Origin: Psammoneis japonica
Taxonomy: Eukaryota
DNA length: 62,771 nt
Assembly (NCBI GenBank): GCA_008632985.1
Contig: QPGO01000268.1
Coordinates: 1 to 62,771, forward strand
Direction of reading: 5' to 3'
Shown: piece by piece, positions 10,497 to 62,771 of the stretch
Position numbering within the stretch: position 1 is the first letter of the stretch
Layout: each line of letters starts with the position of its first letter
Program-made: the position numbers and the translations under genes
Notes under the pieces: model-generated
Seen by the model: the letters and a program-made list of their open reading frames with translations, nothing else
Told to the model about the DNA's origin: nothing
Databases searched by the model: none

Positions 10497-10561
10497 GAAA
10501 ATCGGCTTTCGTCACCCACTACATGACACCAAGTTGCAGTGGGTGACGAAAGCCGATTTTC
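10497..10561. repeat. 27-bp inverted repeat with 11-nt spacer
   Basis: gaaaatcggctttcgtcacccactaca (10497-10523) and tgcagtgggtgacgaaagccgattttc (10535-10561) are 26/27 complementary. Confidence 0.9.
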
Positions 10562-15200: not shown

Positions 15201-15735
15201 GAATGATGCGGTCCTCAATTCGATCCATTCGTCTCACGGCAGCATTTTGACGCAATCAAGGCCAGCTTCAAAGACATGCTCGAGAATTCTGGGGGTGTGA
15301 TCCGCTTGGCACACAACTTGGAGCTGCCATGTGTGAGAAGGAGTGGGTGAAGATTGTGCGGTCCTCAATTTGACTCATTCGTCTCACTGCGGCATTTCAA
15401 CACGATCAAGGCCAGCTTCGAAGACATGCTCGAGAATTCTGGGGTGTGATCCGCTTGGCGCATTGCTTGGAGCTGCACTGGGTGAAGCACTTGGTGCTGG
15501 ACTCAAACTTGAAGAAATTTTGGCTCACTTTTGCCATCTTTCCAGTGTGATTTCCAGCGAGAAAATAAATCTCAAGCGCAAACACACTGCCATGTATGAG
15601 AAGGAGTGGGTGAAGATTGTGCGGTCCTCAATTCGATTCATTCATCTCACTGCATCTGCTGGACCCTGACACCTGCATGTCGACGCAAGATCAAGGCCAG
15701 CTTAAAAGAAATGCTCGAGAATTCTGATTGGAGAC
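15095..15735. repeat. Imperfect triplication of the TBC 3' end and downstream sequence
   Basis: Core gagaaggagtgggtga..gcggtcctcaatt..caaggccagctt..atgctcgagaattctg starts at about 15184, 15335 and 15598. The TBC coding part is duplicated at about 15097-15195 and 15511-15609. Confidence 0.85.
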
Positions 15736-15739
15736 TTGT

Positions 15740-16850: not shown

Positions 16851-18312
16851 TGCTTGCCAGAAAGAAAAAGAGCAGTGTGGTGTGAAAACAGAAACCATCA
16901 CATTTAAGTGCGCAATGACATCGCAAGTGCTGCGGCCGTCATCGCAGTCCATTGACGCACGCACAGAAAATGAACAACACACCAACAAAGATTGCTGTGC
17001 TGCACTTTTAGCATTTCTACTTCTATCGTAAAAGTTCAAAGCATGTTGCAAAAAATTGAAACACGCCAATGTCAAAAGCAGCTGTTAAAATCGGTTGCGC
17101 AGGATGACATTGCCTCAAAAGCGCCATCAGAAGATGGATCTAAAGCTTTTTCATGTCTTCAGGTGATGGGGATGGAGTGAAAAAGTGCAGCCTGAAAACA
17201 ACATACGAGAACAGATGCCTCAGTCAAAATGATGAGGAAAGAGATGGCTCGCGGTCCAGTGGCTCTTGGCAATGGCAAATCCCATCGAAGTGCATCTTTG
17301 GTCGATTCTCTGTTTCTTTCCTTGTGCATCTTACGAGATTCATCATTCATGTTCATCGTCACAGCACGAATTGCTTCCAAACATTGCTTGGTTCTGCTGA
17401 TGGTGCTTTTGATGGCACGTCACTGTGAGCTGCACTTGGCATTGCAGAGGGAAATGCCGAGGGCTCCGTCAAAGGGTTGGTCGTCACATCACCAGCTGGC
17501 CGAGTGGAAGGATCAGTCAATGGGACTTTGCTGATTGGCAAAATCGGGACAGCTGACAGGCAGGAGCAACGTTGACTCCAGGCCGGAGACACGCATTCGA
17601 CCGGCCTCCGGCCTCAACTGGCAACACCTGCGCCGCCGAGACAACACTTCGTGCAAGCAAATGAGTTGCATGACTGCCAAACAAGAGAAGACTTTCTATC
17701 ATCCAGAGGAAGGGCAAGCCATCCTCGGCGATCGCCTGCATTCCTGCTTGGCAAACAACAACACATCGTGCGAGACACGAGACGTCGAGTTGAATGTGAT
17801 CCAGAACGAAAACGAGCGCGAAAGAAGAAAGCTGCTTTCGGGGAGAAGTTGTGTCGTGACCGTTGCTAAATTTCTCAATCACTATCATTTTTGTGTAATA
17901 TTGTAGTATTAATACCATCATGTCGTATGTAGAACATGGGTCGGAAGTTGGTAGGCACTTTCAAAATGAAGTCATCGGGTCATCAGCTCAGTCTCTCCAC
18001 GTAAAACATGCGGAGAAAAGACAAAATTGATTAATCAACAGTATCCTGCTATTTATCACAGTCATTATCCCATCAGAAACAAATAACAACAGAATCCAAT
18101 TGAGGCAATGGTTCCTTGAATGTCATTTCGGGTCATAATGTCCATCAAAGTTGGTCACGATTTTTGGAAGCAAACTCAGGTCGAAATTATGCGCATCCTA
18201 CATGTTGTGTTGCTTCCCTTTCGAATCCATTACACCTACATGTTAATTAAAAGCATTTATACTTATTTTGTATCATTACATGCTCATCAGTGCCTCTGTT
18301 GTAAAAAACACA

Positions 18313-24900: not shown

Positions 24901-26998
24901 GAAGACCTGAATATTCTAGAGGACTTGTGCTTACGTTCTCTCCCAAGGGGCGTCACCAGGGCCATTCTAGATGGTGATTTAGTCTTCTCGTCTGTAGCCG
25001 CAGTGTTCACAGAACTTGCTGTATCAAAAGATGGAGCGTTTCTAATATCTGCTATCCCAACCTTGCTTAACCGCGAATCCTGGTTTTCATCTTCCGCCAT
25101 CAATGACGTAAGACGGTCTATAAATTCGTCATCTGATTCGGATTTGAGAGGAAACTCGTAGAGTTGCATTTGCTGTTCGACTCCGTGGGGCCATTCTGTC
25201 TCGTTCAACAAATCGGTGCCCGTAGACCCTTTCACAAGAGTATGTCGCGGCAACAGTGGAACAATACCAAAGCACAGCGGTGTCAAGAATTGAGTGCCAA
25301 ACACACTATAGACTTGCTTGGATTCCTTGCCAGTATCTTTTTCAGTTCTTTCTTCTTCCGTGTATTGTTTCAGGTCTCGAGTACTACTGCCCCCGACCTT
25401 GAGCTTGCCTTTCCCGAGGCTCTTGATGCGTCCACCAAGACGTCTCTTCGCACCAGGCGAGGATTTTGCAGATGGATCGCTTGTAACACGATAGGGTTCG
25501 ATGCTTCCGCGCGAGAGACCTGGTGCACCTGCATCACGACATAAAGACTGGAAGTATCGTCCTTTCCAATATCCAACGGATCGTATGAGAATATGGCCTT
25601 GTGCTTCTGGTTGCGCCACGATTCTTCAACTTCCGTTACCGAAGTTCCACTTGCCAAAGCACATGCAGCATCGAGTTGAAGCGATAGGCCTTCCCAATCC
25701 CCTGCAGGGAACCAAAATTCTTCACTGATCTTTCCAGCAACGTTCGAACTCGTACCCGGCAAATAGTACAAGGCCAGACTGCACACTAGTGGTTCAACAT
25801 TTCCGATATCGAACTGCACCTGCATGGGACAAGCTAAATAGTGGATTCGCCCAGGTGGTCGGTCGTGAAATGGCCTTGGACGCCACCCCACCGTCGACGA
25901 GTAAGACGCATCCAGTGGCGGCGCCAACATGGAAGTACGATTTGGCTCAAATCTCTGCGCATGCCACCTTTTCTTTTCACTTGCCGGAGCAAATAAGCGT
26001 TTGTTTCTTTCCATGGCCATTAACAAGTTACGTCCAGCCAATGGCATGCCGGCAAGACCTCCGTTGTTCCATTTAATGTTTTCTTGTAAGAGCGGTCGAG
26101 TGGGTTCATCCACGATAGCTGTTCCCAAAAAGTTTGAAGCAACCAGCACAGCTAAACGAGGACTCGCCTCTTCCCATGTTGTTTCCAACAGGATTTCCTC
26201 TTGCTTCAATTCTATTTCTTTTTGAGATGCGTTAGGAAAGCCGACATCAGATCTCATGGGCAAACGTCGCTTTACGTTCGACAAAAGCGGGGGTTTGCTA
26301 GGCAGTACCGCCATGGTTGCAGCAAGGGGATCAATAGACCGATATCGCCCATCACGCTTATGAGACTTGGTTCGAGATGTCCGACAAACGCGGCGCTCCT
26401 TGGGTTGTAAATCATCATCCCACGGTACGAAGACGTCGCTGCTGAGGCCCAACGAGGGTGCAAAGTCTAATTGACGAATTTGTGATGCGTTCTGCATTCT
26501 ATGAAGTAGCTCCAAATATTGAAGAGACGGAGACATCTTTTTCCGCACTGACGTTCTACCGGCGCGTTCTGCCTCTTGCACATGCTGTTGCCACTCCTGT
26601 GTGGATACTAAGCGAATGGGTTCGAATGCATACCGCTCATTCAGATCAATCGTACGCACTGAAACTCTTATGGCGTCCTCTTCATGTTGAAAATCACGTC
26701 GGGTTGATTTCGGCCTTGATTTATGACCAGAAGCAACACTATGGGAGTGAGATTTGTTGTTTGGGGGACGAGGAGGTACCTTGTTATTGCTGCTGGTACG
26801 CGGATGAGATGGGACGAGTCGTCGCCCAGAAATTTGCTGTGAACGAGAAAGTTTTTGGTGTGAAGGTTCATCGAGAGTATCAACTGTAGGGGCCGCGTAG
26901 ATACTCAAGGGATCGCGATTAGCAGGGACTGGTGGTTCGGTGGATGGGGTTGCCTCCTTAGTGCTACGAGAGCGTTTCGCTCCGCTGCCTTTCCTCAT
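18997..26998 (-). CDS. DOCK (dedicator of cytokinesis)-like protein
   Basis: EPLVCSLALY..KISEEFWF (DOCK N-terminal region), NLLYLYP (DHR-1/C2), RLRWLHTLKCLH..EAAETLI (DHR-2 lobe A), HPFPCALSRQR (end of lobe B). Introns 22598-22687 and 21112-21205 (GT-AG, frame-consistent). Three apparent 1-nt frameshifts (about 25500, 24311, 23250) join the track ORFs and are probably assembly indels. Confidence 0.75.
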
Positions 26999-27560
26999 GG
27001 TGGCTCATCTTTTTTGTACGGTATGATGATGTGCTGTCTGCTGTCCGGTGCTCTGTCCGTCTGTTGTCTCGCGCGCTCATTTTGCGCAGGACTGGCGTGG
27101 GAAATGCATGCGCGACGCTGCGCGTTTTTTAATGGATATATACAATGATTAGGAACGTAAAACAGATTTCACAAGACTCTTCCATTATAAAAATTTCGAA
27201 GATTTAACAACCTCTAAGATCCTATTGCCCTTCTCGATCCAACGCAAAACCAACGACACAAAGGTGGAAGCAACACTCGCTTCGGCTCAAAAAGACACTG
27301 CAGCGCAGTGTAGCTCATTCTTCACCAAAGACATTCATATTGACGCGAACAAGTGAAGGTAGGTTCAAGTGACAACGTCGTCATGCATGCAACCGCGATG
27401 AATCGACCGAAGTCCCTGCTCGATACCACAAACGAGGGTTTCCTCTAAAGGTCGTAGCAAGAATGCCAGTTGCATCCACGTGCTTTTTCTCACAATGACG
27501 CTATGTTCTCACGCTGTGCCTTCACCTCCTCCTGTATCTCTGGATAAAGTAGAAGAAGCC

Positions 27561-31072: not shown

Positions 31073-33106
31073 TTCCTATCAACGGAGGAATGAAAGTCTT
31101 GTTATACTATTGCAACAGCAACTTGGAGCGGAGCGGTTTGAGAATGTGCGCCGCCTATCGTCGTTTTGTGCGTGGTGCGTGGTCGTGTTGTTGCGTGGCG
31201 GGAAGCATGCAAGACTCAGAGATGATGAGTCATCAGGTAATGGGCTCAAAAATAGTTTCTTGTCACCTTCCGTCGGTCCGACAGCAAGGCCCTAACTGTT
31301 GGTGCTCAGCACACAGCATCTTTGCATCTTGTTTCTTTGAAGGCCAACTCATCCAAGTGATGATGACTTGCAAACACCCCGTTGCACAAATCTGGCTGCA
31401 AAGCATCAAACGAAAGGCGTGCCAACAAATGACCCCCAGTTTGCGTCGATGGCTCTCGGCAAGTTGTGGATCCCATGATGAAGATGGGCTGTGGCCTTGT
31501 GGCATGTTGCCACAGCACCAGTGTGTGCAGTTCATTTGGCAGCCACTTTCTTTTTTCTTGCCAGATTGTTTTTCCCAGAAGAGTTTGCATCAACAAGCTG
31601 CTGCAGCGACATCCTCATGGGGCAGCTGCGCCAACGATGCTTCACAAGAAAAGTGTGTCTTGCAGGATGATGCTGAATGCCACAGCATGGCTGTCAATGT
31701 TGGCAACACACTTGTCACAAAGAAAAAGCACATGAAGGTTGATTTGGTGTGTCTTTTGACTTGCAATGTGGGTGGGGCAAATGTGAACTTTGAAGGGAGA
31801 AGAAGAAGATGTGCTGTTGGGTCCAGACAATCCGGTTGTCTTTGTTGTTCATGGGGGTGTTGGAGGAGCAATGTAGACATGAGATGCAAAAGCAAGAGTG
31901 TTGTCAGCAAAGTCAACAAAGCGTGCATTGAGGTGCAGATCGAAGATGTGCAAGTGGAAGAGCACAATGAGTGGGGGGTGGAAAATGCAAGAGAAAGGGC
32001 TGGGTGAGTGCACAGCTGCAAGCATTTGCTTTGATTCCATCTGTCTGTTTTGCTGTGCTCACATTTTTGATTTTCACAATGCAAAGCAAAACAGATCCTC
32101 TGCAGCTGGGAAAAATCAAGCTGAGCTGCATTGAATGGCATGTTTGAATCAGCTCTTCATCAAAAGCTCTCATGGCAAGTCCAAAGGCCGCCACAATTCA
32201 GTCAATCCCCACATTGAGAGCCGTTTTTGTGAATGATGTGTTTTTATTTGTTCTTGCTCATGACACTGGCATTTTGCCATTCACTTTTGGAGTGTGCCAT
32301 GGAGCAAATTTCTGCCTTGCACCAGACAAAATTTCTGCCTTGCGCCGCACATTGAAGCAGGTCCACCCAGGCTGTCTGGGATCAGCTGTTGATTGGGATC
32401 TCTTGTGCATGCTCTGAGATGAAGAGCAAAAGAGGAAAAAAGGGGAAGAAAAGATGATGCACATGGTGAGGAACAGCTGTTGGAGGTGACAAATGGCCTT
32501 GCCAATTGTGGTGTTGTCACTGAAGAGGGCAGAACATCAGCCTCTCCACATGGTTGTCAGGCCCACACCAACACCAATGAGCACACCAATGCCGCCACAA
32601 ATGGAGCCTGGGGTGGCTTCCATTTGCATCAGATTTCACCTTGGTGCTCATTGGCTCACCCATTGAGTTGCTTCTCATGCTGTGGGGTGCTCACGCTGTC
32701 TTTAACAAAATGGCAACATTGGCCAACAAGAGCAAAGCCAATGAGGACAAGGATGATGTTTGCTGTGATGACTGCATTGTTTTGCCTTTCACATTGCCAC
32801 CAGGAGGTGTTTTTAACATTTTTTCATCCTGGCAGTGATTCTTTGGTGCACTGAACTGCACTTTTTCTTTTGGCTGCAAAGTGCAAAACAAATGTTTGCA
32901 TTCTGCCTCCCAAATGTCTGATTCTAGAAGGGTCAGATGCTCATTTTCAGGTGAAGGCTTGCACATTGACAGGGGCATTTGCCAAGAAAACAAACTGTGC
33001 CTGGTCCTTCCTTGGTGACTCAGGTTGCAGAACAGGCTTTGGCCTTGTCATCAGAGCTCACTCAGGACCTGGCTGATGTTAAAGCCAGTCCAAAGATGAT
33101 GTGCTT

Positions 33107-33684
33107 CACCCAAAAAGGTTCCCATTGGGAGGACAAGCCACCATGTTGATTGGCGACTGCAGCCAGGAGCAATTGAGAGTGAGCACATTTTGGCTGTCAT
33201 GGCTCACTCAATCTGCTGCTTTGTCAATGTGGATGTCTTGGACTTTTTTCTGATTCTTGCAGCAGAGAAGAACAAAAGCAAGGTGTTGGAAGTGGCGCCA
33301 TCAATGCCCAAGCACTTTTTGATGACAAACAGCTGACTTCATTGCCAACGCTGCAGTCGTTGGTGCTTTGCACCTTTGCCACAAGAGTCAGTTGTCACCC
33401 AAAAAGCTTCTCATTGGGAGGACAAGCCACCATGTTGATTGGCGACTGCAGCCAGGAGCAATTGAGAGTGAGCACATTTTGGCTGTCATGGCTCACTCAA
33501 TCTGCTGCTTTGTCGGTGTGGATGTCTTGGACTTTTTTCTGATTCTTGCAGCAGAGAAGAACAAAAGCAAGGTGTTGGAAGTGGCGCCATCAATGCTCAA
33601 GCACTTTTTGATGACAAACTGCTGACTTCATTGCCAACGCCACAGTCGTTGGTGCTTTGCACCTTTGCCACAAGAGCCAGCTGT
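33107..33684. repeat. 289-bp tandem duplication
   Basis: Unit starting cacccaaaaag at 33107 and 33396, with about ten differences by eye, mostly transitions. Confidence 0.95.
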
Positions 33685-33889
33685 TTAAGAAAAACAACAT
33701 TTCATCCTGAAAGGGCATTTTCCCCATTTTCACCCAGCACCCCAACAGCATGCAGGGCCAACTGCGTTCTGCTCACTTTTGCAGCTTGGAGGCAAGGATG
33801 CACACAGCTGCTTGTGCAAAGCACAACAACTCTGATGCAATTCATCATGCCTTTTCTCTTTGGCTTGACCGCTTTCACTTTTCACATTG

Positions 33890-35300
33890 CAAAAAAGCCC
33901 TTCCTTGCCATCTTGAACTTCAAAGGCAGCAGACCACATCAACACCACATTGGCTCTGGCAAAAGAAAGTTTGGCTGCGCCAATGCTTGGGTGCTTTGCC
34001 ATGAGACATTGCATCAAAGCATTGCATTGAATGGCAATTTCATTGGAGTTGATCTTTCTTGTTTGGTGCAGAAACAATCTGCATTGAAGATGCAGCATGG
34101 CGTGATTGCAGAAGGGATGCAACGTGCTGTGCAGCAACTCCAGCCACCACTTCTGCAGCACCACATCTGCCAATCAACAGGTTGGGTGTTTCACCACAGC
34201 AAGCAACAGTGCCTTGGCCCAATTGACAACAAGCAGTTTCAACTCCACCAGGTGCATCCACAAGAAACCATGCCAGAAGTGTCAAATGTGGCATGACTGC
34301 ATTGAAAAAGCTGTTGGAATCACAGACACCTGGCACAGGTGATGCATCGTTTCACTTGAGGGTTTTGTTTCAAACACTGCTTTGGCCCCTCTTTGGAAGC
34401 TTCACAAGATGGGAATGGCCAGCAAGTTTGGACAAACAGAAAAATCACAAGAAATGCATCTTGCATGCCATGGGATGCTGGTCAAAAAGATGTCAACAAA
34501 AAGCCAGTTGGTGCTGGCACAACTTGAGCTCACCTTTCCCACAGATTTGCTTGGATTGACAGCTGTTGAGCAAATCCCTGCCACCCCTGCTGCCATGGAG
34601 ACATGTCCCAATTCCCAATCCACCAGCTGAATCATTCTCCCCAGAAGACAACCTGAGCTCAAGAGCTGAGTGGCTTGTTTGAACAAGGCTGTGTTCTCAT
34701 CAAGAGCTGTCCCTTCCTGCCAAGAAGTGAAGCCCAGATTTGCAGGCCATCACTCTCTGCTTCTCATGCTGCTGCACTGTTTTCCACATTGCCAGCCCAT
34801 GATCTGACCTCACACTTGTTTGCTCAAGCCTCTGCTGTGTTCTTGTGGTTCTTGCAAGACTGCAAATCATTCACATGTGTTGTTTTCTTGTGCTTGAGAC
34901 TGGGCTCTATTTTGGCCGGCACATCATCTGCTGTGAAAGTGCTCAATTTTTTGTTCTCTTCTTTTTTGTGGCTTTGATTGTTTTGCAATGTTTTGGCGCT
35001 GGATCGTGCGCCCCAGCATCACATGACAACTCTCGCCAAGATGCAAAACAGACCACGCAAAGAGAGAAAAGGACAGAGGGCCCATGGGCAAAGAGAGCAA
35101 AGTCAGTGATGAAGCAACAACAGCCAAGAGATCATGGCCGCAGGTGCCAAAAATCAAAACTTGGAAAGCAACATGAGATTGGAAGCCACAATTGCCGGGT
35201 TTGTGCTTGTTGAGAAAAAAAAAACAAATCCAGCCACCAGTGCACTCCAGCCAATGTAGACAACCACCACCAATGAGATGGGCTTGGGTGCGCTCACACA
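33890..35300 (-). pseudogene. Hypermutated paralogue of the methyltransferase-like gene at 37522-38989
   Basis: ATQLLSSG..ELGHVSMAAGVAGICSTAVNPSKSVGK vs AIQFLNSG..GSGHVSMAMGMAGIQSTVVDPRESVGK, and CNALMQCLMAKHPSIGAAKLSFARANVVL vs YIDLLQYLMAKHPSIQASKLPFDGANVVL. Same intron position. The 5' limit is approximate. Confidence 0.85.
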
Positions 35301-36226
35301 AAAGCAAACCATGTCGTCAGTGCTTTGTTGATGTGTGTGCTTGTCAAGAAGAGTGACAACAAACAAGACAACATGTTTCACTCACTGTCATTTCCTGCTT
35401 TGCTGACTTCACTGGAGCTGCAAACACACAGACAGACATGTTGACAATTGTTGCACTGCAAATGTGTGCAAAAATCATCTTGCTGAGAACACGTGCACTG
35501 CAAGACACAGTCTGCCAGAGATGCGGTGAGAGGTGAGAGGTGGGAGGAGGGAAGACACATTTGAAAGCCTCAACATTTGCAGGAAAGTCACCATGCAAGT
35601 TGAAGCTCTGACATGCAAATGTGCAAAACTGAAAATGGTTTGACAGGCAAACAATCAAACTGCTTCCAAGGTGATCTGAGCATGCCAAGGCTTGAACAAA
35701 GCTTTGTTCGCCCCAAAAGAACGAGTTGCAGCCCGCCAGGCATTTCACAACAGATCAACACAGCCAGGGAACTCGTGAACTCAAACGTGAGTGACTCGGG
35801 GGACAGAAGGACAGACACTCCCGACCCTGCTTGATCGATTTATTCATGGATCGCTCCCCCATGTTCGTTGGTGCTTCTTTGTGCTTTGGCAATAGATGTT
35901 GTCTTTTGGTCTGACAATGCGGGATGCTGAATACTCTGTATAGAAGACAGGAACACTTTCGTTAAAAACGGGAGTGGAACACATTTCGCGACAATGCAGT
36001 GCAAACACGACCAAAATTATCGTTGCGGGCAACATTGCGTGCAGTTATCAGCCCTCTATCGATAACGCGAAATGTCGCGCGAATTTGCTGCATGATGCGA
36101 AAAGGTTCATTTTTCGCGCATGCGGCATTGGCTTATTTCGATTTTCGGAAAGGCTCACAATCTAAAGAGAAGCAAAACAACAAAGGACTATTCACATCAG
36201 CTAAACAACAACAAAAGAAAAAAAGC

Positions 36227-37521: not shown

Positions 37522-38989
37522 TTATTCGCTTTCAGATCCATGTATTTCAAAGGTAGACCATAGTACCACGTTGGCTCCGTCAAATGGAAGTTTGGATGCT
37601 TGGATACTTGGGTGCTTCGCCATGAGATATTGTAGCAAATCAATGTATGTACTAACCGTTTCGTTGGAGTTGGTCTTTTTTCTGTGAGGGAACAATCTAC
37701 CGAAGACGCAGCACGGCACGATTGCAAAAGGGATACGACACCGTACCGCAACGTCAACCACCGCGTCTGTAGCTTCGTCGGGGTGGAGAGCGACAATGGC
37801 GCTGCATCTACTAATCAACGAGTCAGATGTTTCGCCACAGTAAGCAACAGAGCCTTGGTCTAACTGACGAAACTTTGTATCAACTCCGACAGGCATGTCC
37901 CCAAACCATGCCCGTAGTGTTGAATACGGCACGACTGCGTTGTCAGACTTGTCGGAATCGGATGTATCTACAGGAAAAGTATTATTTCGTTTGAGGGCTT
38001 TACTCCAAATCTTTCGATCCCTCTTTGGAAGCTGTGTAAGGTGGGAAACGACAACTTGCGTGCTGTGAGACACGGGTCAAAGACGGTAACAATACGTGTT
38101 GGTGCCGGGCACAACTTGAACTTGCCTTGCCCACAGACTCTCTTGGATCAACAACTGTCGACTGAATCCCTGCCATTCCCATTGCCATGGAAACGTGTCC
38201 TGATCCACCAGCGGCGTCAATCACCCCAGAACCCGAGTTCAAGAATTGAATAGCTTGTCTGCGCAAGTCTATATTCTCAACAAGAGCCGTTCCTTCCCAT
38301 GCCGGAATGCAATTTAAATACAAGTCAGCACTGTCTCTTGTCATCGGATACTGGGTATTGTATAGTTTTTCCATGATGATATGAATCAAAAAGTTTGTAA
38401 TGATCTCGCCCCGTATTCGTTTGCTCAAGCCTCCACCATGTTGTGGTGACGAGAGTGAATCGTCCGCATGTTGATTTCTTTTTTTCTTGCTTTGAGATTT
38501 TGTTCCATTTTCAGTTTGTGAATTATCTGCTGTGAGAGCTTTTGATTCGTTCTGCTTTGCGCTTTTATTTGTAATGGAAAGGTACTTTTCTTGCCACGTT
38601 TGGCACTGGGTCATGTCCCAACATCTCGTATCGATCGCTTGTATTTTCCCCTTTGTTTGTGAAATAGTATTTAACTTCAGGACGTATCGATCTTGCTTCC
38701 ATTCAGTCGCACACCCTTCACTGAGACTTGTCCACGTGCCGTCCTTTATATGAAGCAAAACACCCAGCTTAAAGAGGCGCCTACACCACGAGCGGAGTTC
38801 TTTGTGTTGTTCGTCCGCTTGCTGCTCAAACTGAAGTCGCACAATCACGTGCCTCCTCTCGGCTTTTCCAGATTCTTCTGATGACAAGTGAAGAATTGCA
38901 TAGTGTGCTCGTATTGATCTGCTAAACAATACACCTCGAATAGAACAAGCTGTCTCTGCGGCGTTTGATAAGTGCGAAGATGATGCCAT
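37522..38989 (-). CDS. Conserved hypothetical SAM-methyltransferase-like protein
   Basis: VIDAAGGSGH (SAM motif I-like), STVVDPR, IVALHPDEATD, PFAIVPCCVF. GC-AG intron 38032-38125 joins VGK to LPKRDRK in frame. Confidence 0.75.
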
Positions 38990-51394: not shown

Positions 51395-54300
51395 TTTGAA
51401 CAGCCCATTTCGTGGGGAGGCATTGCTAGGCTTCTGTATAATGCTTTGTGGACTCCATACTTCTCGTCTTTTCCTCCTTTATTTATTTGAATGCACTTAC
51501 ACTCGGCGGCGTCACGACCGCCTCCCTTATGTGGAGGGGAATGCGATTCGAAACCGTTGGTTTTTTTGCGTGTGGCGTTTCGAGTCGCCGGAAATCTGAA
51601 ATGGACTTGAAAACCACAAGAAAAACGATGGAACAGCACAATGTAAAAGGTATGTTCAACGCTGTCTTAAAATGCGTACAGCTTTCAAGTTGTGCGCCGG
51701 TCACTCATTTTGTCGCTGATCTAGTAGGCTACCACTTGTTTTGCAGGACCAGTTGCTGCTGTTAGCCACGGCTGCTGGAGACGGCTGATTGCGCTCTTAG
51801 GAACCTAGCTTCTTCTTCCGTCTTGCTGCGAGTCGTCTGCGCCGTGGATCTGAAGGGTGCATTATTTGAGATTCCCACGGCGTAGCAGAAACCGCCATGC
51901 TTCGTTCTAGGGAAAGACTCTAGAGGCAACCAAGCAACTCTAGAAGTCTAGTGTACTCGGTGGCATCAGAGCAAGAAGATCAAACATCAAGATCCCGATA
52001 GTGTTGCTGCTCAGCTACAGACGACAAGCTCTACAAGTTTCTACACAGGTCAGAAGTTGCCACCAGCATCTCACACGCAACGTCAGAATCCCCATACTAC
52101 ATATTCCTATCAACTGAAATCTTGATTCAGTGACAAAGTTGTCTCTTGCTAACGTCAAGTATCACACTTTGACTGTTCTGTTGTTGGCTCCTTTTCACCT
52201 TCGCTGTACCGGCGTGAGACAGCCGGTGCTTTCTCCGCTTTGTCAAGTGTCGCACTCATGGAAAGTCAAGAGGCAAGCCGATTTGACATAAGGCTGTTGA
52301 AAACGGTATTCATACTCCGAAGCTTCGGAGGGCAAATATTTGAATACTGCGGGTGTTCGACAATCTTCATGTGACCCTTGGTGGAGAGCTCAACCGTCAA
52401 GTTGGCTCATGTGATATGGTACACATGATTGAGTTCGGAACTAAGCAAATCGTTCGCACCTGTACGATATTGCGCAAACAGAGAACACTCGACGTTAGGA
52501 CAAACACCATTGCTGCGTCGTAATTTTTGTCTCAAGAGTCGATAGACCTAGTTTAAATTTTTTTCCAGGCGTTGTCTTGCTGTCGTCCAAAAAATCTCTC
52601 CAACTTACGTAGCCCTGCTCTCAGCCGTAGAGGACTGGGCCCTGTGCCAGGTATAACTCGCTTCAAATCTAGAGTAGCACGCGGCCCTAATGCCAGCGGG
52701 ATAGCTGTGGCACCAGCAGCACTGGCTTTCCTGTTTGGGTTGGAGGAGGAAACTTGCTGGTGATGAATTTGATTGCTCGACTGACAGAGGACAGAAAAGA
52801 GCATGCCGGGCGACAAACTGAACCAGGGCAGATGCGCAACCCTCCGGGGCAATTCACATCAACGCGGCAATGCAGCTGACCAAACCGCCACTCTAGATCG
52901 TCATCTTTGCATTCCAAACTTGATCGCTGTCCATCGTGTCATGAACACTGACTCCTTTTTGCTTTGTCGCCCTTCCCATTTCTGCAGTTGGCCATCAGAA
53001 TGAGCCCCTTGTCTCTGGCCTCCTTCAACTCTTCCTTTGTTTTGCCACACATGTGCGCCAGATGCCTCATCGCTCTTGCAGATGCCAGCTTGTCCAAGCA
53101 ACATCTGGGTTTGAGAGAAAATGCTTCCACATCATCTTTCCTGCCACTGTTGGCAGGAACAAGTGTGGGGGGTGAGGGATTTTGGTCTGGGATGGTGTCC
53201 CTCCCATCTGGCATTTCCTCCAGAGATGGCATCTTGGCATTGTTTTCTGCTTGTGTGTTTCTCATGATCTGTGTGCTCTGCACACTTGCAAAACACCAAG
53301 CAGCATGTGCCAGTGCAGTCTTCCAGCACCCCACATGTTGCCCACTCCATTTTGATGCAGTGCTTGTGGAAAGATTCTTTCTTCAGTTCCCTGCTGGCAT
53401 TGTTCCTCCTCTTTCTCTTGTTGTTTGCCTTTGCACCTTGCCCTTCCACATTTCACAAATTTTGCCCTCTTTTTTCTTGGGGCATGTTGAGTGTTGAGTT
53501 TAGACCAGCACTGTCTTTGCAGCCCTGTCGTCGCTGTTGTCAAGGACCTTGTCATTCAGAAACTTGCACTGTCTGAACAAGACATTCTTGATGCATTCCA
53601 GCTCCAGGTGGGACCTTGCACCACTGCACTGTGACATCAATGGTTTTTTGGATCATGTTGCATGTTGCGCACATGCATTTCTACATGTGACATTCTACAA
53701 AATTGTTTCATGCCCCCCGTTTTGCGAAGCCAAAGGCTTTCTGTTTTCAACATTTGTGAGAATGAAAATGCACTGGGTGTGTTCTCGAATGCCTGCAGAA
53801 CATGCCCGGGCAAACTGTCAATGATGTGCTTCAAGCACAAAGGAGGAGATGCATTCGCAAAATTGCCTCTTTTTCTGTTGGCGATCATTCACATTTTCAT
53901 TGCAGCACAAATTTGCTGCGGAGCTCGCACGTCGAATTCTGTGGGCCCCCAATGTCACACGGAGTCCCACCCAGGACTGGAGCCCATCTCTTGCAGCAGT
54001 TCTGCAACACAATCTTGTCCCTGTTGTTCATTTTGTCACTGTGTTGATTCTTCTTTTGTTTCTTGCTTGTCATGTCACACACCCTTTTTCTCACATGAAA
54101 ATGAAAATTGCATGATGTGTTCATTGCAACAATTGTTTGCACCACAAATGTTGTTTTCACAACCAAAGCTCAAACAAAACAAGAAAAGGCAAAACAAAAA
54201 CAGCCATGGCTTTCATGGCACATGACGGCACCCTTTTTACAACCTTGTGGGCAATTGCAGGGCATTGCAAGGACCCCATCATTGGACACAGTCAACACAC

Positions 54301-55466
54301 AAACCGCGCATGACAAAAAAAAACTGCTGCAGTCTGAGGCACACTTTTGCATTTTGTCATGGTGACAACAAGCACAAGACTTTTGGAGTTGTTGACATCA
54401 AGAAAGCAGCAGGAAAGGGTGCAAAGTTGATGTCAATGCAGCGCTGGTGTTTTGTTTGTCTGTTGCACAATTTGCTGCTCAACAAAAATTTTTGGTGAGG
54501 CCGTTGAATCTCACAAGTGTCAAAATGTGTGCACAAAAAACATTGGCATCCATGCTGCATGACCTGGTTTGCACAAAAGAGTGTCCCACGCATGTTTCAA
54601 ATCAGCGCATCAATGTGAGCACACATTGCTCTCAAGGAAGTGCTGAGCTTTCATCTTGTTCAGCAACAATGAGCCCAGACAATCTTCAGAAACAACAACA
54701 CTGGTGCACAAACAAGACCTTTCTGCTGCATGCGCCCATGTCTGAACATTTGAGCGTCAACACATTTTTGTCAGAACAAGTCTGAAAACATGGCTCATGA
54801 CCAAATGAGAGCATGTTGGAGTTTGGCACTCACAACTGCCAATGTCAAAGGTGGGCTTTCTCTGAGACTCAATGAGTTCACAGAAATGATTGAGCCCACT
54901 GTTTGGGTCTAGAACACCCTGTGCAGCCAGCCAAGAAGGAGCTGAGAATGGCAAAAAAGCCAAGCCCACAACAGACCTGATTGTGCAAAATGACAAGATG
55001 CAAGATGCTGTGTGTGAGGACAAAAGGCAGGCACAAAAAGTTGATGTCACAACTCCAGCAGCAAGTCTCTCACCTCTGTCAGCATGGGGTGACACATGCC
55101 CATGTGGTGCTCTTCCCACTGTTCCACAAAAAAGAAGAGCTGCAAAGATGTCTGCATGACAGCCAAATGGTGCACTCCTCCTGTCATCAGATGGTGACTC
55201 ACAGAGGCCAAGTGCGCCATGTTGCATGGGCAATCAAATCCATGATCAAGCAGCTGTCCAACCAAGAGGTGCAACACTCCTGTCCGCCTTGCCCGCTTGT
55301 CATTCATGCAACCCATGATGGTGTGACAAACCACCATGCAGTCTCTGTTGAGAAATGCCATCACACAAAATGATGCATCAGCATCAAAGTTGGCCACTGC
55401 AGTGCCATGACACCCCACACACCAGCCACAATGATGCAACCTCCCAGTGTGGCAGCCATGTTGGGC

Positions 55467-58400
55467 AGTCACGACTCAACGTCATTCTGGTCACATCTCA
55501 CGACTGCAACCCAGACTCAGATTTTCTCTTCAAAATGGTTGGCTCATCACAAAATCGATTCAAACAGAAGCAACGACATTCGTCACAATTTTTAGACAAC
55601 GACTTTGAACAAGCGTCTGTTTGCCTCTGTTGCTGCTCACATTGCTGCCAACCTCCGAGGTCTTGTCCATCCTACCCAGCTGCAGGACTGCATCTCGACT
55701 GGCCACAGAGACCAATTTGCGCATTGACGAGAGCTCCTGACCGAGTCATCGTCACGGACGCTTTCGGTTTTTGATTTTGAAGCAAACCCGGGAAACAGCT
55801 GAGTCTCTCTCGCTTCTCTCGTCTTCACTCTAACAAGAGCCTCTCATGCTGCACTCTCTGTCATGGCTGCCATCGATCCGGCTGTTCTGGCGAAGGCGTT
55901 TGCCGACGCAATGGCCGCCAACGCCGCAGCGACCGCTCCTCCGGCTCCAACCAAGCCGTTGCATGGTGGAATTCACCCAACCCACGGGGTTTACATTGGT
56001 GGTTCCAAACTCAACAACAACTGCGAACAATCCAACGATGGAACCTGCCGACTCGCCTCTCAGTGCCGTCATCCCAAGGCTCTCGACTCGACAGAACGAT
56101 CTCTCCGCGATCAACAAGCTTCCGCAATGACTTCCAAGTTCAACGGTCGACTTGAGATTTTGGACGGTCCCATCAACGAGCTTGACAAGGACCATTTCGT
56201 CAAGATCATTCGAGATCTAGTAGAAGCCCACGGTCAGCAGACGTTCTGCCATGTCAAGAACAGCGACGACAAGGTTCAATGTATCTTCGACCATCTTCAC
56301 GAGTTCACTGTGACCGATCTCGTGAACAAGCACACGGTTGGGAAAGCAGCTGCTGATGACACCAAGCACGACGAGATCGAGCTCGACGACATCGGGCTCT
56401 CTCAACTTCTCGTTCACTCAAGAATCACTGACACCTTTCGCGAGAAAATCGAGACCAAGTTCAACCATCTCTCGGACTGCCAAGACTGCCCTGGATCTGT
56501 TCCATTCATGATGGCTCTCGACACTTGCAACACTGGCGCTCTGACGGACATTGAGACGGCTAAGAAGCAGCTAGAAGACCTCAGTTTGGTCAACTGTCCC
56601 GGCGAGGATTGCACGGACTTTGCTGCCGAAGCTCTTCGCATCGTGAAAATCATGCAGACCGACTGCGCGCTTCCGGCAAACACAAGCTCCAAGCTGCTCC
56701 ACAAGATCTCCTCTGCGTCCTCTGAATGCTTCAATCGCCAAGTCTGCAACAAGCTCGACGACGTCAAGGCTATGGAACGCAAGCACCGCCTCAAGAATCC
56801 TGCTGACATCGTGTCCGACAGCGATTGCAAAACGCTCAGACCGGTCGGCATCATTGCATGGATTCAGGAGCAACACAACGAACTCGTGAAGGACAGGGAG
56901 TGGCCTGCGTTGGTCGCCAAGCTACCCGAGAGTAATCTTTCGACTGCGGATGACCCTGGGAAGACAAAGCACTGTCATGGTTGCGGTCTCGAGGGGCACA
57001 CCAAGAAGACGTGCCCGAAGTGCAACGCCAAACCGCCGCGCGACGATCCTCCTCCCAATCCGCCGCCTGCAGACGACCCTTCCAAGAAGAAGAGGCGACC
57101 CATCGCTGCCTGGCGTGCTAAATTTGACGGAGAAACGAAGAAGGACAAGAATGGCAAGGAATGGAAGTGGTGTGCCACGTGCATGGCGAAGGGTGCCGAC
57201 AAACCTGGAATCTGCCAGAAGCACTCTACCGCGGAACATGCCGACGACCACAGGCACCCTCCCAAGGAGACCCCAGCCGGGAATTTGTCTTCCGTTGCTG
57301 ATCCGGACAGTGGCGTGCCCATGGGTCCGCCCGCTCAGACTGCCAAGGAACCAGAGGGAGACGAATCCGACCCCAACGAGTTGGTTTTCACGGGAATGTG
57401 GTGCACGGCTGCGGATGCCGTTGCCGACCCGGAGTTCTGTTCCGCCCCTGTTGCTGCTGCATTTGTTGTTCCTCCGGCTTCTTCGGCCGAGAGGGAGAGC
57501 GACACAGTCGTTAGCACTGAGGTGGTTTGCAACGAAACGAGCCCACCTGCACTCACCTCAGTCGTGGATCCAGTCGTGTCTCCCATCGTGGTTGAGACTG
57601 TCACTCCCGAAGACGCCGATGACTTCTGCGAATGCTCCGACGCTTTCTCTACCTTTGAAAACGAACCACCAGCCATTGAGTTGTTTCCGGCCTTGAAGCT
57701 GCACTCTGTCAAGCATCCAGATGAGTTCTTTGACGCTCCCGCACATTTGACGGATGTGCTGTCAGACGACACAAAGTTGGGTCTCATCCTTGAACACGAC
57801 GTACACTTTGAAGACGCATGCTACGACTTGCCTCCGTGTGCCACATGTCGTGGCTTCGATTTCTACGATCCAGAGGTCCTGGACACGGATGATTGTCACG
57901 AGGACGTCGAAGACGAGCCCACTTCGCGTCGCTCACTTTTGGGACGAGTCAAGCCATTCACATTCTGGCTCGCCGCCATGTTTTGGGAAACGGCACTGCA
58001 TCTTTGCTTTGCTCTGATCCCTTGCATCCCTCGAGCTCTACGCCGCCAGTGCAAACTCCCAACTTTGCACGGGTTTCCAGCCTCCTGGATGGTCCTGTCC
58101 GTTGCAGTGATGGCATGGTCAGCAGTTTGCGCCGGTCAACAGCCCGAGCATCCATTCTCGAACGCACCAAGTCGTTTTTCGACCGCTGGCTCTCAAGTCC
58201 ACCACATTGTGGAAGAGCTAGATGACCGGATAGTGTCAGATGCGGGGTCACTGTTCGAATGTCACAGGATCAAAGGCACGCAAGCACTCACCGAGTTTGT
58301 CGCGCGCCATCCGTCACACGCACTGAGCACTCGTCTCAAGGCCTGCTGGGAGAGCCCAGAAGTCGCTGAACGGTCGGATGCGATAGACGAATCAGCCTTC

Positions 58401-61400
58401 TTTGACACCTGTGAGGAACTGGAACCTCTCAACGACTAGAAGCATTTCTTTGACGCTCTTGAGGACTTCAGCCCGGATTTCTTCCGGTTTGACGAGCTCT
58501 GTCTGCCGAATCACATCGTGGACACTGCCCAATTTCAAGATCCTGTGGAACTGTTGGAGGAAGCAAGTGTTAGACCAGTCGTCTACAATGCCTCCACCAT
58601 CCAACTGCTCACCGGACAATCACAAGCCGACCTCCTTGCATCCGATCCGCAGGCACTCATCGGTCTGTCAGACGAGGCTCTCACGGTCGTCATGGACACT
58701 GGTGCCACGTTAGCCATTGCCCCCGACAAAGATGATTTTACGGGGCCCATGACTGTTCCCAAGAAACCCTTGCAGATCAATGGGATTGCCAACGGTCTCA
58801 CCATCCAGGGTGCCGGTCCGGTTGCATGGGTGTTCACAACGCCGAGTGGGGCTGCCATCCAACTGAACACCATGGCATGCTACGTCCCTGGAGCCCGTCA
58901 GCGCCTGCTGTCGCCTCAATGCCTCTTCAACGAAGAAAAGGGGGTGCGTGGGAAGTGCGAGGGCGATGAAACCACTTTCCGTTTACATGTTGACGGGACA
59001 GGCAAGTTGGTCGTGCCATGTCATCCATCAAGCCACTTGCCCATTGCGTCGATGACCAAGGGCGTCTCTGCCGCTCCTCAAGTGAACCTGCAGATCCTCA
59101 ACGAGGAGAATCAAAACCTCACGGCAGGCCAAAAGCTTCTTCTCGAAATGCATGCCCGTTTTGGCCATTTGAACTTTGGTCGCGTCCAAGCACTTCTCCG
59201 CGCAGCTCCGTTCCTGTCGAACCGTTTCAAGTCCGCAGCGAAGTGTGACCACCCAAGATGCGAGGTGTGCGAACATGCTAAAGGTCATGGACACTCCCTT
59301 GGATCTACTCACAAGTCGACAGTCCCTGAACGCGACGGGGCCCTTCGAGCTGACCATCTTCGACCGGGTCAGGCTGTCAGCATTGATCATTTTGAGTCGC
59401 GCCTTTTGGGCCGCACCTTCGACTCACATGGCAAAGCCACGTCCAAGCAATTCAAGGGCGGTTGTGTCTTTGTCGACCACGCCTCTGGCTATGTCCAGGT
59501 CAAGCACCAACTGGGTTTCTCCGCTGTTGAGACGATGCGAGCGAAGCAAGCGTTTGAGAAACATGCTTTGGACCACGGGGTCATCGTCCAAGAATTTCTT
59601 GCCGACAGTGGCGCTTTCAAGGCCAACGCTTTTGTGCAACACACACGAGACCATGAACAACGTCTCCGTTTCTGTGGAACCAACGCCCATCATCAGAACG
59701 ACGTTGCAGAGCGGGGCATCCGAAGCATCTCCAACATGGCGAGAGCGATGTTGCTTCATGCATCAATCCACTGGAAGGGGGGAATTGACAGCTCCCTGTG
59801 GCCCATGGCAGTTTCTCATGCCATGCACATCTACAATGTCACCCCAAATTCCAAAGGACATTGCCCAGCGGACATTTTCACTGGTTCGACAGTGCCAAGA
59901 CATCGGTTGCGCGACATTCACACATGGGGATGTCCAGCGTGCGCACTTGATCCGACCCTCGCTTCTGGGAAGAAACTCCCGCGTTGGGAGCCTCGCACTC
60001 GTCGCGCTTTGTTCGTGGGACTCAGCACCATCCATTCCAGTGAGGTTCCTTTGGTCCTCAATCTTCAAACTGGAAGTGTTGCTCCTCAGTGTCATGTGGT
60101 CTTTGACGATCTCTTCACTGCCGTGCCATCAATCGAGAGGGAGACGGATCCACCTGATCACTGGGAACACTTGTGCCTCAACCAATCGACATGCATCCCT
60201 CTGGAGAAGGATCAAGCAGTTCATTCACACGATGAGTGGCTTGCCCCTCCAGAGCGTCAACGTAAAGAGCGAGAACCAGCCAGAGCAACACGCACTCGCG
60301 GCCATTTTGAGCCTGCTCCATCGATTGCTGTGCCGGATTCACCCACTTCTCGTGACGACATTGCCGATCGAGTCGCACCTGCGACTCAGCAGCCAACGCC
60401 ACCAGCCCCATCTACAACTCAAACTCCTGCAGACTCTGCGGACTCTACACCAATTCAGCCACCTGAACCTCAAGACAGTGACGGACTTCCGCCACCCGAA
60501 GCGCCGACGGAACCAACAGCTCCTCCCCCAGTCGAGACACCTCCCACGACGAATCCAGAGGGAGTGCCAGGGCTGCGACGGTCTTCACGGTCAACCAAGG
60601 GACAGTTCAACTCTGCCAAGTTTGTAGATGAGGTCTGCTTCAGCTCCGTCGAGGAAATGCCGCTGCCGATCGGACACGAGGCTCAGCCAGCGCATCTGGC
60701 GACTCTCGAGACGGATTTGGACAGTGGTGCCATCAATGTCGGCGATCCACGAGCCTGCGCGGCTAGTGAGAAAACCAAGGACCCTGATGTGCCTTCGTTG
60801 CACAATGCTCTGAAAGGTCCGGACACCGACGAATGGATTGAGGCGATGAAAATTGAAGTCAATGCACTCATGCATCGTCGAGCCTGGAAAGCAGTCGAGC
60901 GTCAGCTGCACATGAATGTGCTTCCAGGCACATGGGCACTGAAGCTCAAGAGACTCCCAGATGGAGCCCCTCTCAAGCATGAGGCCCGACACTGCGTCCG
61001 CGGTGATTTGCAGAAAGAAGGAGTCGACCACTTCGAAACCTGCGCGCCGGTTGTGCAATGGTCCAGTGTCCGACTCATGCTCACTGCGGCATTAAAGGAG
61101 GGATGGACTGCACGTCAGGTGGACTGTGCCACAGCCTTTTGCCAAGCTGATGTCGCCGAGGAAGTTTGTGTCACACCGCCGAAGGGATTTGCGCCAAGGT
61201 CGGGACTCAATGTGGTTCTCAAACTTTTGAAAGGACTGTGCGGCCTAAAACAGTCTCCCAAGGGCTTCTGCGAGAAGCCACGAGCTGGTTTAACCGAGCG
61301 CGGATGGGTGCCTTCAGCCACAGATCCCTGTTTGTATTTCAAAGAGGGCATGATGTGTGTGGTGCACGTCGACGACACCGTTTTTGCTGGAGCTTCAGCT

Positions 61401-62510
61401 GAAGCTCTAGAAGCCGAAATTCGCAAGTCAGGAGTCTCCGACGACGAACATCGCCACGCATTTGAACTTAGAGACGAAGGAGAAGTCGGCAACTTTCTCG
61501 GCATCAAGATCGAAAAGCTCTCCGAGGGTCGATTTCTACTCACTCAACCCGGTCTAATTGACAAGGTCCTGCGTGCCGCACAGATGCAGGATTGCAATGG
61601 AGCATCTGCTCCAGCTCTGCCTGCGGCTGTTGGTGCCGACACGGACGGCCTGCCTTTTGATGAACCCTGCGATTGTCGCTCAGTTGTTGGAATGTTGATG
61701 CACTTGGCAGCAAACAGCCGGCCAGACATTGCGTGTGCCACACATCAAGCAGCTCGATTCTCGTTTGCACCCCGAGCGTCCCACACTGCTGCAGTGAAGC
61801 GGATGCTCCGATGCCTCAAAGCAACTGCCACTGAAGGTCTCATTCTCAAGCCTGCGCAAGATCATCGAGTTGATTGTTGCGTCGATTCTGACTTCGCGGG
61901 GTCATTTGGTGTGGAAGATGGTCAAGACCCAGTTTCTGTCAAGTCCAGGACTGGATGCCTTGTCCACTGCGCCGGCTGCCCGCTTGTCTGGGTGTCCAAG
62001 CTGCAGACTCTTGCAGCATTGTCGACTGTGGAAGCGGAGTGTGTCGCACTTTCTCAAGCTGTGCGCGATCTCATCCCCATTCGTGAAGTTCTCAAGGAGC
62101 TCAACCACCACGCACTCGGAAAGTCTGACCACCAAAACCCCATCACGACTCACTCCAAGGCTTTTGAGCTCGCAACCCAAGGCACCGATGACTCGCCTGT
62201 AGAGCAGAATGTCCCACCTGCGTCAGTTGTGTACGAAGATAACTCCGCGTGCCTCAAGTTCGCACGCATGCCCAAGTTGTCTCCGCGAACCAAACACATC
62301 GGTGTCCCGCACCACTGGTTTGGGACTAAAGTCGAACAACTGGAGATCGACATCCAACCTGTCAGCACTCTAGAGCAACCAGCCGATCAGCTCACGAAGG
62401 GACTACGGACCGATGCGTTCCGCACGGCCAGAAAGGCTCTCATGGGCTGGCAAGCTCTCTCGGTTGAGAGGGAGAGTCACGACTCAACGTCATTCTGGTC
62501 GCATCTCACG
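55467..62510 (+). mobile_element. Near full-length Ty1/copia (CoDi-like) LTR retrotransposon, TpA-hypermutated
   Basis: Domain order gag-PR-IN-RT-RH. A 36-bp LTR start is shared by 55467-55502 and 62475-62510 (one mismatch). PPT gagagggag at 62466-62474. The 3' LTR diverges after 36 bp. Confidence 0.93.
55863..62453 (+). pseudogene. Copia gag-pol polyprotein, inactivated
   Basis: ORFs 55863-58439 and 58518-62513 are in one frame, split by TAG 58437-58439. Zinc knuckle CHGCGLEGHTKKTC, protease VVMDTGA, integrase H..FGH..C..C with VSIDH/LADSG/AER, RT HVDD (61365-61376), RNase H VDSDFAG/EAEC/YEDN/ADQLTK. The ancestral stop after LMGW is probably at 62451-62453 (now CAA). Confidence 0.92.
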
Positions 62511-62771
62511 TGACAGGATTTGAACAGGATTTGGGTGCGCGCGAAGTGTCGCGCGCTGTTTAGTTTACCGTGCACAGTTTTGTGTGCTTTAGTTCCGCGC
62601 GTTCACGCGCGATGTAGTTTGCTTTCGAGCCACAAGGCTCACAAGAATGATGACAGCAGCCCGACCACACCGACTTGCACGTCTTTCGGCTCCTGCAACG
62701 GTCTCTGAGCGGAGACTCATCTGCCATTTAGACAGCAGTAAGGAGTCATTGTTTGAATTCTTGCCATTTGC
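62511..62771. mobile_element. Probable terminus of a second element inserted into the Copia 3' LTR
   Basis: Identity to the 5' LTR stops abruptly at 62510 and new sequence begins TGACAGG (LTR-like TG start). The other end and TSD are outside the window. Confidence 0.4.

Follow-up and report, generated by a model that had tools for sequence, protein, structure and literature searches.

The window analysed here is a stretch of 62,771 nucleotides from the diatom Psammoneis japonica (contig QPGO01000268.1, positions 1 to 62,771 of the forward strand, assembly GCA_008632985.1). Close to its right end lies a Copia-type retroelement copy that is strongly depleted of the dinucleotide TpA, and three further blocks of the window share this depletion. 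The changes in the element are mutations that follow the rule TpA>TpG/CpA and not the composition of an adapted active element. The underlying process is a TpA-specific A:T>G:C process that favours TAY (Y, pyrimidine; R, purine), affects both strands and is regional with sharp edges. The features of the element are the following.

55467–62510, forward strand: Copia-type retroelement copy, TpA-hypermutated (Pfam RVT_2, E 1e-31; TpA and CpG counts)
55467–55502, forward strand: 5' terminal direct repeat, 36 bp (blastn against 62475–62510, 35/36 identical)
55803–58436, forward strand: gag-like frame, 878 amino acids (aa), 3 Tyr, one CX2CX4HX4C knuckle
58437–58439, forward strand: in-frame TAG separating gag from pol, in the resistant context CTAG
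58440–62513, forward strand: pol frame, 1357 aa, 6 Tyr, with TGA at 62511–62513
60882–61619, forward strand: RVT_2 reverse transcriptase domain, pol residues 815–1060 (Pfam)
61365–61376, forward strand: reverse transcriptase active-site motif HVDD in place of YVDD, gag-pol residue 1855 (Tyr in 0.9 of 40 relatives)
62475–62510, forward strand: 36-bp terminal direct repeat at the 3' end, within the last part of the pol frame (blastn; edge of a contig from read run X1)

The element is assigned to Ty1/Copia by its RVT_2 domain and by the end-to-end alignment of its frame with Copia polyproteins of 2100–2300 aa. The best relatives are gag-pol proteins of about 2100–2300 aa encoded by a single open reading frame (ORF), and those with names among the matches listed come from the diatom Fragilaria crotonensis. 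None of the best 120 of 237 word-index hits (E≤0.001) and none of the 150 cluster representatives listed (50% clusters) is more than 59% identical to the element. The domains gag_pre-integrs and SH3_retrovirus match pol only below the Pfam cut-offs, and the gag frame matches no Pfam family at E≤0.001.

The element coordinates coincide with the ends of the 36-bp terminal direct repeat. The shared letters of the 5' repeat begin about 6 bp upstream of 55467, which gives a repeat of about 42 bp. No pair of long terminal repeats (LTRs) longer than this was found in the window and no matching 5-bp flanks were seen, i.e. the LTRs with target-site duplication that characterize Ty1/Copia elements were not found at 55467–62510. 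The 5' LTR may be truncated, the 3' LTR may extend beyond the end of the window, or the element may be an R-to-R complementary DNA (cDNA) copy. An insertion edge is located at 62510/62511, as seen in the contigs of X1 that were aligned over 52000–62771: one of them joins 53826 straight to 62511 with 7 other letters in between. The sequencing platform of X1 is not on record, and the run may stem from the window's own sample, so that its contigs are not independent proof of the base calls.

A preliminary description of this DNA had reported the element as free of frameshifts. No frameshift is present, yet the gag-pol frame of 2236 codons contains a single stop, the TAG at 58437–58439. All five X1 contigs that cover position 58437 carry C at this place and therefore read CAG. 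Either the window copy has gained the stop by C>T, or an ancestral read-through stop was lost elsewhere by TA>CA; the alignment with 40 relatives is gapped at this column and favours neither origin.

Expected dinucleotide counts were derived from base composition. The element contains 53 TpA versus 353 expected, an observed/expected ratio (O/E) of 0.15, while CpG is retained (O/E 0.91), in line with the preliminary description. The non-coding leader is as TpA-depleted as the coding parts. Pol was compared with 38 Copia pol genes, hand-picked among the longer matches of 80 metagenome loci; none of these 38 falls below a TpA O/E of 0.38. Based on the tetranucleotide frequencies of these relatives, 188 TpA are expected in pol and 29 are observed. 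TA is the only one of the 16 dinucleotides outside the range of the relatives (0.14 vs 0.38–0.92); the O/E of AA is 1.10 (relatives' median 1.05) and that of AT is 0.90, within range. The scarcity of Tyr pointed out in the preliminary description is likewise evident: 3 of 878 residues in gag and 6 of 1357 in pol are Tyr, versus 2.1–3.9% in the 120 listed relatives.

To locate the missing Tyr residues, the element frame was aligned with 40 relatives using MAFFT. A column was taken as a conserved Tyr column if at least 60% of the relatives carry Tyr. At the 42 columns of this kind, the element has Cys at 21, His at 8, Tyr at 4, Phe at 4 and other residues at 5. A threshold of 70% leaves 34 columns, with Cys at 19, His at 5 and Tyr at 3. 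As a control, 20 relatives retain Tyr at 81–100% of such columns and the usual substitute is Phe. Seven Copia motifs with Cys or His, as listed in the preliminary description, are replacements relative to the 40 relatives: YVDD>HVDD, ETYAPV>ETCAPV, LYGL>LCGL, MLMYL>MLMHL, PDIAYA>PDIACA, LRYLK>LRCLK and EAEY>EAEC. An exception is the His of GVDHFET, whose column has a majority of Phe (0.6), not Tyr.

Two tests of the TpA rule were designed to work without the ancestral DNA. The first uses replacements attributable to A>G at codon position 1 (Thr>Ala, Ile>Val, Met>Val, Ser/Arg>Gly, Asn>Asp, Lys>Glu). T precedes 29 of these 41 codons, while among G-initial codons without a change the baseline is 65 of 243 (Fisher p 1e-7); the reverse class of replacements numbers 12. 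The second uses T>C at codon position 2 (Leu>Ser/Pro, Val>Ala, Ile>Thr), where the codon is NCA in 12 of 15 cases versus a baseline of 35 of 178 (p 3e-6). The rule thus extends to changes that do not involve Tyr, as had been proposed. Lys>Glu and Asn>Asp, which reflect a TAA context, make up 3 of the 41 position-1 changes.

By the codon table, TA>TG/CA never creates TAA, TAG or TGA in a frame free of them. For this reason, long Tyr-free open frames persist, and the open frame of 2235 codons signifies few other mutations rather than escape from hypermutation. An intact ORF is hence a weaker sign of youth than had been assumed. That an active element has been selected to avoid TpA was considered and rejected, as catalytic and conserved Tyr residues are replaced and the non-coding parts are equally depleted.

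The distribution of TpA over the 63-kb window was surveyed in 500-bp steps, and block edges were read from the positions of TA. Genic DNA has a TpA O/E of about 0.4–0.9; three blocks reach 0.00–0.2. Their edges are sharp to about 200 bp and are adjoined by genes of normal composition. The loss of TpA therefore continues beyond the element, at about 3.9–17.8, 31.3–35.8 and 52.9–55.5 kb, where it is accompanied by loss of CpG; these regions do not appear in the preliminary description. The blocks and the features used for comparison are listed below.

3904–17860: block 1, TpA-poor and CpG-poor, with tandem arrays and a TCTP-like ORF (TpA O/E of 500-bp steps 0.00–0.39)
9610–10113, forward strand: TCTP-like ORF in block 1, 168 aa with 0 Tyr, 7 Cys and 10 His (Pfam TCTP, E 1.8e-17)
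31294–35840: block 2, TpA-poor and CpG-poor (TpA O/E 0.00–0.18 in bins 31501 to 35501)
33914–35020, forward strand: depleted copy of a paralogue pair, 63% identical to 37541–38625
37541–38625, forward strand: copy of normal composition of the same pair, outside block 2 and 3.6 kb from the depleted copy
52900–55466: block 3, TpA-poor and CpG-poor, directly upstream of the Copia element
62511–62771: 3' flank without clear depletion, very deep in X1 (TpA 6 vs 14.8 expected, O/E 0.41; CpG O/E 1.15)

All bins of block 1 have a TpA O/E of at most 0.27 except for 10501–11000 and the edge bin 17501–18000. Next to the element, 53000–55466 contains 5 TpA versus 172.7 expected at a CpG O/E of 0.21. Across the older blocks the CpG O/E is 0.06–0.7, unlike in the CpG-retaining Copia element. 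Two pockets stand out in block 1, namely 10501–11000 (TpA O/E 0.37, CpG 0.93) and 7001–7500 (TpA 0.27), which may be younger inserts or protected sequence.

The paralogue pair allows the products of the process to be read directly. At the 38 alignable TA sites of the normal copy, the depleted copy reads CA 17 times, TG 11 times and other dinucleotides 10 times, and TA is not retained at any of them. At the 49 CG sites of the normal copy, the depleted copy reads CA 18 times and TG 17 times. The TCTP-like ORF carries Cys or His at Tyr positions of solved TCTPs and lacks the first ~40 positions of the profile; it is probably a hypermutated pseudogene or a captured gene. Taken together with the depletion of non-coding DNA, it indicates that non-coding sequence and host-type genes within the islands are hit as well.

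The context of the surviving TpA was determined window-wide by comparing depleted with normal parts, with both strands counted. Survival is lowest for ATAT (0/216), followed by ATAC/GTAT (0.036), GTAC (0.045), ATAG/CTAT (0.057), ATAA/TTAT (0.09), GTAA/TTAC (0.16), CTAC/GTAG (0.24), CTAA/TTAG (0.37), TTAA (0.41) and CTAG (0.44). In pol alone, compared with the 38 relatives, survival is 0.04 for RTAY, 0.13 for RTAR, 0.17 for YTAY and 0.31 for YTAR. If the A of 5'-TAY is hit on either strand, RTAY offers two good targets and YTAR none, which matches the order of survival. The target preference is TAT, then TAC, well ahead of TAA and TAG.

The direction of change agrees with this motif. Tyr codons after a purine (RTAY) became Cys and His in a ratio of 10:7, those after a pyrimidine in a ratio of 11:1. 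In the paralogue pair, RTAR sites yielded CA 5 times and TG once, and YTAY sites yielded TG 3 times and CA once. For Tyr codons and paralogue pair combined, the product is the predicted one at 19 of 22 sites with a single favoured strand (p 9e-4). Sense and antisense events are interleaved along the element, with 31 runs versus 29.6 expected and no strand-coordinated tracts, which bears out the earlier statement that TG and CA products are intermixed. Overall, sense and antisense events number 50:20, an excess that results from what a protein comparison can detect and from the TAY context.

The preliminary description had regarded the process as repeat-targeted. This part could not be upheld, as the stretch 54160–55239, which has single-copy depth in X1, is fully depleted and the very deep flank 62511–62771 retains a TpA O/E of 0.41. 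Summed word depth in X1 is about 3,300–7,600 over the element, 107–158 over 54160–55239, 27,863–62,524 at 53440–54159 and 310,120 at 62511–62771. The depth over the element suggests a multi-copy family and is no measure of copy number. The two very deep stretches, 62511–62771 and 53440–54159, seem to belong to a single high-copy repeat, split here by 8.7 kb that include the Copia element.

Of 7050 X1 contigs, 1437 are at least 99% alike to the window, and a contig of 588 letters matches the TpA-poor stretch 54103–54689 with 7 other letters and 1 gap. Variant places comprise 161 A>G, 166 C>T, 170 G>A and 172 T>C as well as 173 transversions of all types. Near-equal transition directions would be given by independent choices between TG and CA among copies, but are unspecific. 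Among the 40 of 850 variant places listed, 9 lie within the element, with all contigs differing from the window; TpA is involved only at 58437, so that these places are uninformative on the spectrum of the family. No RNA data set is listed as containing the element.

The same mark occurs in Copia sequences of other families and assemblies, though most of the sequences compared lack it. Four of 148 cluster representatives related to the reverse transcriptase-RNase H part contain less than 1% Tyr: P0331 (1 Tyr in 2061 aa), P0360 (2 in 611 aa), P0284 (7 in 919 aa) and P0251 (12 in 1423 aa), the last of which looks only partly affected. P0331, P0360 and P0284 have mainly Cys or His at conserved Tyr columns. 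P0389, from the same cluster as P0331, is different from it at 27 of 2061 positions. Cys/His swaps make up 13 of these differences (4 at conserved Tyr columns), and 26 of the 27 fall into TpA-rule classes, some of which are reachable by CpG decay, too. Within the 80 metagenome Copia loci, TpA depletion is strong in L018 (O/E 0.04) and L049 (0.19) and mild in L068 (0.30); the other 77 have ratios of 0.34–0.92. These proteins and loci (P0331, P0389, P0360, P0284, P0251, L018, L049 and L068) come from ENA, Logan, NCBI and GenBank WGS. Gene callers annotate such Tyr-poor Copia sequences as long intact proteins.

Several known systems resemble this pattern in part. Fungal repeat-induced point mutation (RIP) also represents a dinucleotide-specific transition mutagenesis that destroys the coding capacity of mobile DNA, regionally and with sharp edges. 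RIP changes C to T, mostly at CpA, and raises TpA, whereas the direction here is A:T>G:C, TpA falls to 0.15 and stop codons are never created. Decay of 5-methylcytosine (5mC; CpG>TpG/CpA) likewise leaves TG and CA in the same regions, and the older blocks show both losses. As the sole cause it would require CpG depletion, which is seen in the older blocks only; the young element retains CpG at low TpA, and the two processes are hence separable. The exclusion of RIP and of 5mC decay for the element, as put forward before, is thus confirmed. APOBEC3 and ADAR in animals produce deaminase-type hypermutation in integrated retroelement copies, copy by copy, but act on the cDNA or RNA stage with strand bias and in other contexts. 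The strands are hit equally here, non-retroelement DNA is included, and no bias relative to the sense strand of the element, as expected for RNA or cDNA editing, was found.

To our knowledge, the mutagenic defences described for eukaryotic genomes were of the C>T type (RIP, APOBEC) until 2026, when an A:T>G:C counterpart was reported from a single rhizarian alga, the chlorarachniophyte Bigelowiella natans (Mettrop et al., bioRxiv 10.64898/2026.01.13.699255, 2026-04-14). According to the preprint text, Illumina reads of mutation-accumulation lines placed 231 of 302 new single-nucleotide mutations inside one integrated region of a nucleocytoplasmic large DNA virus (NCLDV) and one integrated virophage region; 230 of the 231 are A>G or T>C, each at TpA. 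The rate is given as ~6e-7 per site per generation, about 1000-fold raised, and reverse transcriptase and DDE domains are described as over-represented in coding sequences with low TpA. The authors propose an ADAT2-like deaminase and a RIP-like defence role. This preprint overtakes the earlier claim of an undescribed system.

The window shares with B. natans, as far as the preprint describes it, A>G and T>C changes almost only at TpA, TpG and CpA products on the two strands, and restriction to regions of foreign or mobile origin that leaves TpA-poor sequence rich in CpA and TpG, here within one 63-kb window. The signature is real and of the same recently described kind, which it extends to a diatom host and to retrotransposon targets, with near-saturation and a longer motif as further additions. 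The host is a stramenopile instead of a rhizarian, and the targets are a Copia retroelement and transposon islands instead of viral inserts. Depletion is near saturation (O/E 0.00–0.2, with genic DNA of the window at about 0.6) compared to 0.45 reported for the NCLDV region of B. natans, and the TAY/RTA context is visible where the text of the preprint names TpA alone. No report of TpA-directed hypermutation in diatoms was found in the literature, nor a paper citing the B. natans preprint.

The element is probably a copy, now dead, of a diatom Copia family with many members; a context-specific process of the B. natans type would have changed about 85% of its TpA to TpG/CpA, running near saturation over whole sharp-edged transposon islands and much faster than CpG decay. 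In this reading the A of 5'-TA is the site of the A:T>G:C change, whichever strand carries it. That it outpaces CpG decay is indicated by the young element, which lost TpA and kept CpG, and by the older islands, which lost both. The preliminary description had postulated a chromosomal DNA process. Action at the DNA level is favoured over RNA editing, since non-coding and host-gene-derived DNA is hit; action in place, on integrated chromosomal DNA in silenced chromatin, is what we infer from the analogy to B. natans, the lack of strand bias and the mutation of non-retroelement DNA.

The agent may be an adenine deaminase similar to TadA/ADAT. In tRNA anticodon loops, these enzymes naturally act on A34, which follows U33, and their inosine product is copied as G. 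In E. coli, TadA also edits the A of TACG in mRNAs, which turns Tyr TAC into Cys TGC (PMC5630033). The motif here resembles that of TadA and ADAT2-3, with A after U/T and before a pyrimidine and Tyr (TAC)>Cys (TGC) as a typical outcome, a likeness of motif and not a test of membership. In contrast to these enzymes, which act on RNA loops and are described as requiring TACG (PMC5630033), the record here lies in DNA and on both strands.

Several points weigh against this reading. The motif departs from that described for TadA (PMC5630033), as TAT is no less susceptible than TAC. All depleted stretches could in principle be transposon-derived, which weakens the case for action in place on the chromosome. 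Several adjacent TG/CA double differences occur between tandem units of the old blocks, but CpG decay can produce such discordances just as TpA changes can. Finally, in the sequence alone, mutation of A looks the same as mutation of the T on the partner strand (RTA).

A broader version is conceivable and is put forward as a tentative idea that we would sooner expect to fail than to hold. Diatoms might possess a TpA-specific DNA-editing defence as old as the group of stramenopiles, alveolates and rhizarians (SAR). It would target T-A-pyrimidine like tRNA U33-A34, share a common origin with the Bigelowiella system, saturate newly silenced retrotransposons well ahead of methyl-cytosine decay and, since it makes no stops, leave long open 'zombie' frames among assemblies and protein databases.

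The ambiguity between A and T leads to the alternative that survives best, although it appears unlikely: thymine chemistry. The T in R-T-A of silenced chromatin would be modified by a dioxygenase of the TET/JBP type to 5-hydroxymethyl- or 5-formyluracil, mispair with G and change to C. Because TpA is self-complementary, every count fits 'T after purine' equally with 'A before pyrimidine'. A:T>G:C changes are promoted by 5-substituted uracils, 5-formyluracil among them. In dinoflagellates, members of SAR, 5-hydroxymethyluracil takes the place of much of the thymine. No paper combining dinoflagellate 5-hydroxymethyluracil with TpA was found in the literature. The B. natans authors prefer an ADAT2-like deaminase, likewise by proposal only in the preprint text.

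Editing during retrotransposition, i.e. deamination of the RNA or cDNA of a new copy before its integration, in the way that APOBEC3G acts on retroviral C, is rated somewhat lower still and is improbable. The pair P0331/P0389 from another Copia family, with its 13 Cys/His swaps among 27 differences, would suit an independent mutation of each copy, and the loss of TpA ends near the 3' end of the element, as the next 261 bp contain 6 TpA versus 2.2 expected at the rate of the element (p 0.026). This mechanism is opposed by the absence of both strand bias and strand-coordinated tracts and by the equal depletion of the non-coding leader. Moreover, whole islands of 4.5–14 kb are depleted, including the TCTP-like ORF and a locally duplicated gene fragment whose normal partner lies 3.6 kb away, and the targets described in the B. 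natans preprint are integrated DNA viruses that mutate in place.

A base-calling artefact, in which a long-read platform miscalls a modified base at TpA of heterochromatin as G or C, is very improbable. A regional and motif-specific signature does resemble methylation-type miscalls. The X1 contigs reproduce the TpA-poor sequence (with the 1437 of 7050 near-identical contigs mentioned above), though possibly from the same sample and on an unrecorded platform. Independent public assemblies show the same loss of Tyr (P0331, P0360, P0284) and of TpA (L018, L049), and the B. natans result is reported from Illumina reads.

Error-prone patch synthesis (Pol eta with its WA>WG signature, which includes TA, or Pol iota) and GC-biased gene conversion among repeats both increase A:T>G:C but are the least credible of all, as AA is undepleted (1.10 vs 1.05, against the earlier Pol eta candidate) with AT at 0.90 in range, Lys>Glu and Asn>Asp account for merely 3 of 41 position-1 changes, and gene conversion carries no TpA rule.

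With a deaminase-like process of the B. natans type as the preferred explanation, the window implies that the TpA process is not peculiar to one species or to viral inserts. The extended TAY motif narrows the search for the enzyme, and since tools for transformation and knock-out exist in diatoms, the mechanism is testable. If the mark is indeed present in some diatom Copia copies and absent from most, a comparison of lineages could identify the enzyme. The process also has a bearing on the base composition of diatom genomes and on transposon turnover. For annotation, long open Tyr-free 'genes' are to be expected in such islands, and several such proteins are already in public collections.

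The depleted blocks contain tandem arrays at 15093–16737 and 33106–33684, with units of about 150 bp that are 77–94% identical and a 290-bp duplication of 96.6% identity. A Pfam scan of 60 ORFs from the depleted blocks and from the genic region between them (36–39.6 kb) returned TCTP and UbiA as the only families passing the cut-offs. Used as a marker of the host, the UbiA gene yielded no scored match. No Rfam RNA family was detected anywhere in the window, including 62511–62771 and 53440–54159.

Two host loci are found outside the depleted blocks.

18997–27004, reverse strand: overlapping long open frames of 710, 522, 412, 474 and 544 aa
29693–31075, reverse strand: ABC1 kinase gene, best identity 69%

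The first has the appearance of a single, very large host gene whose introns are few and short. The ABC1 kinase gene marks the host as a diatom that lacks a close sequenced relative in the collection searched: the legible names among the 120 listed hits are all diatoms, and they include Fragilaria, Cylindrotheca, Nitzschia, Epithemia and a truncated 'Thalas...'.

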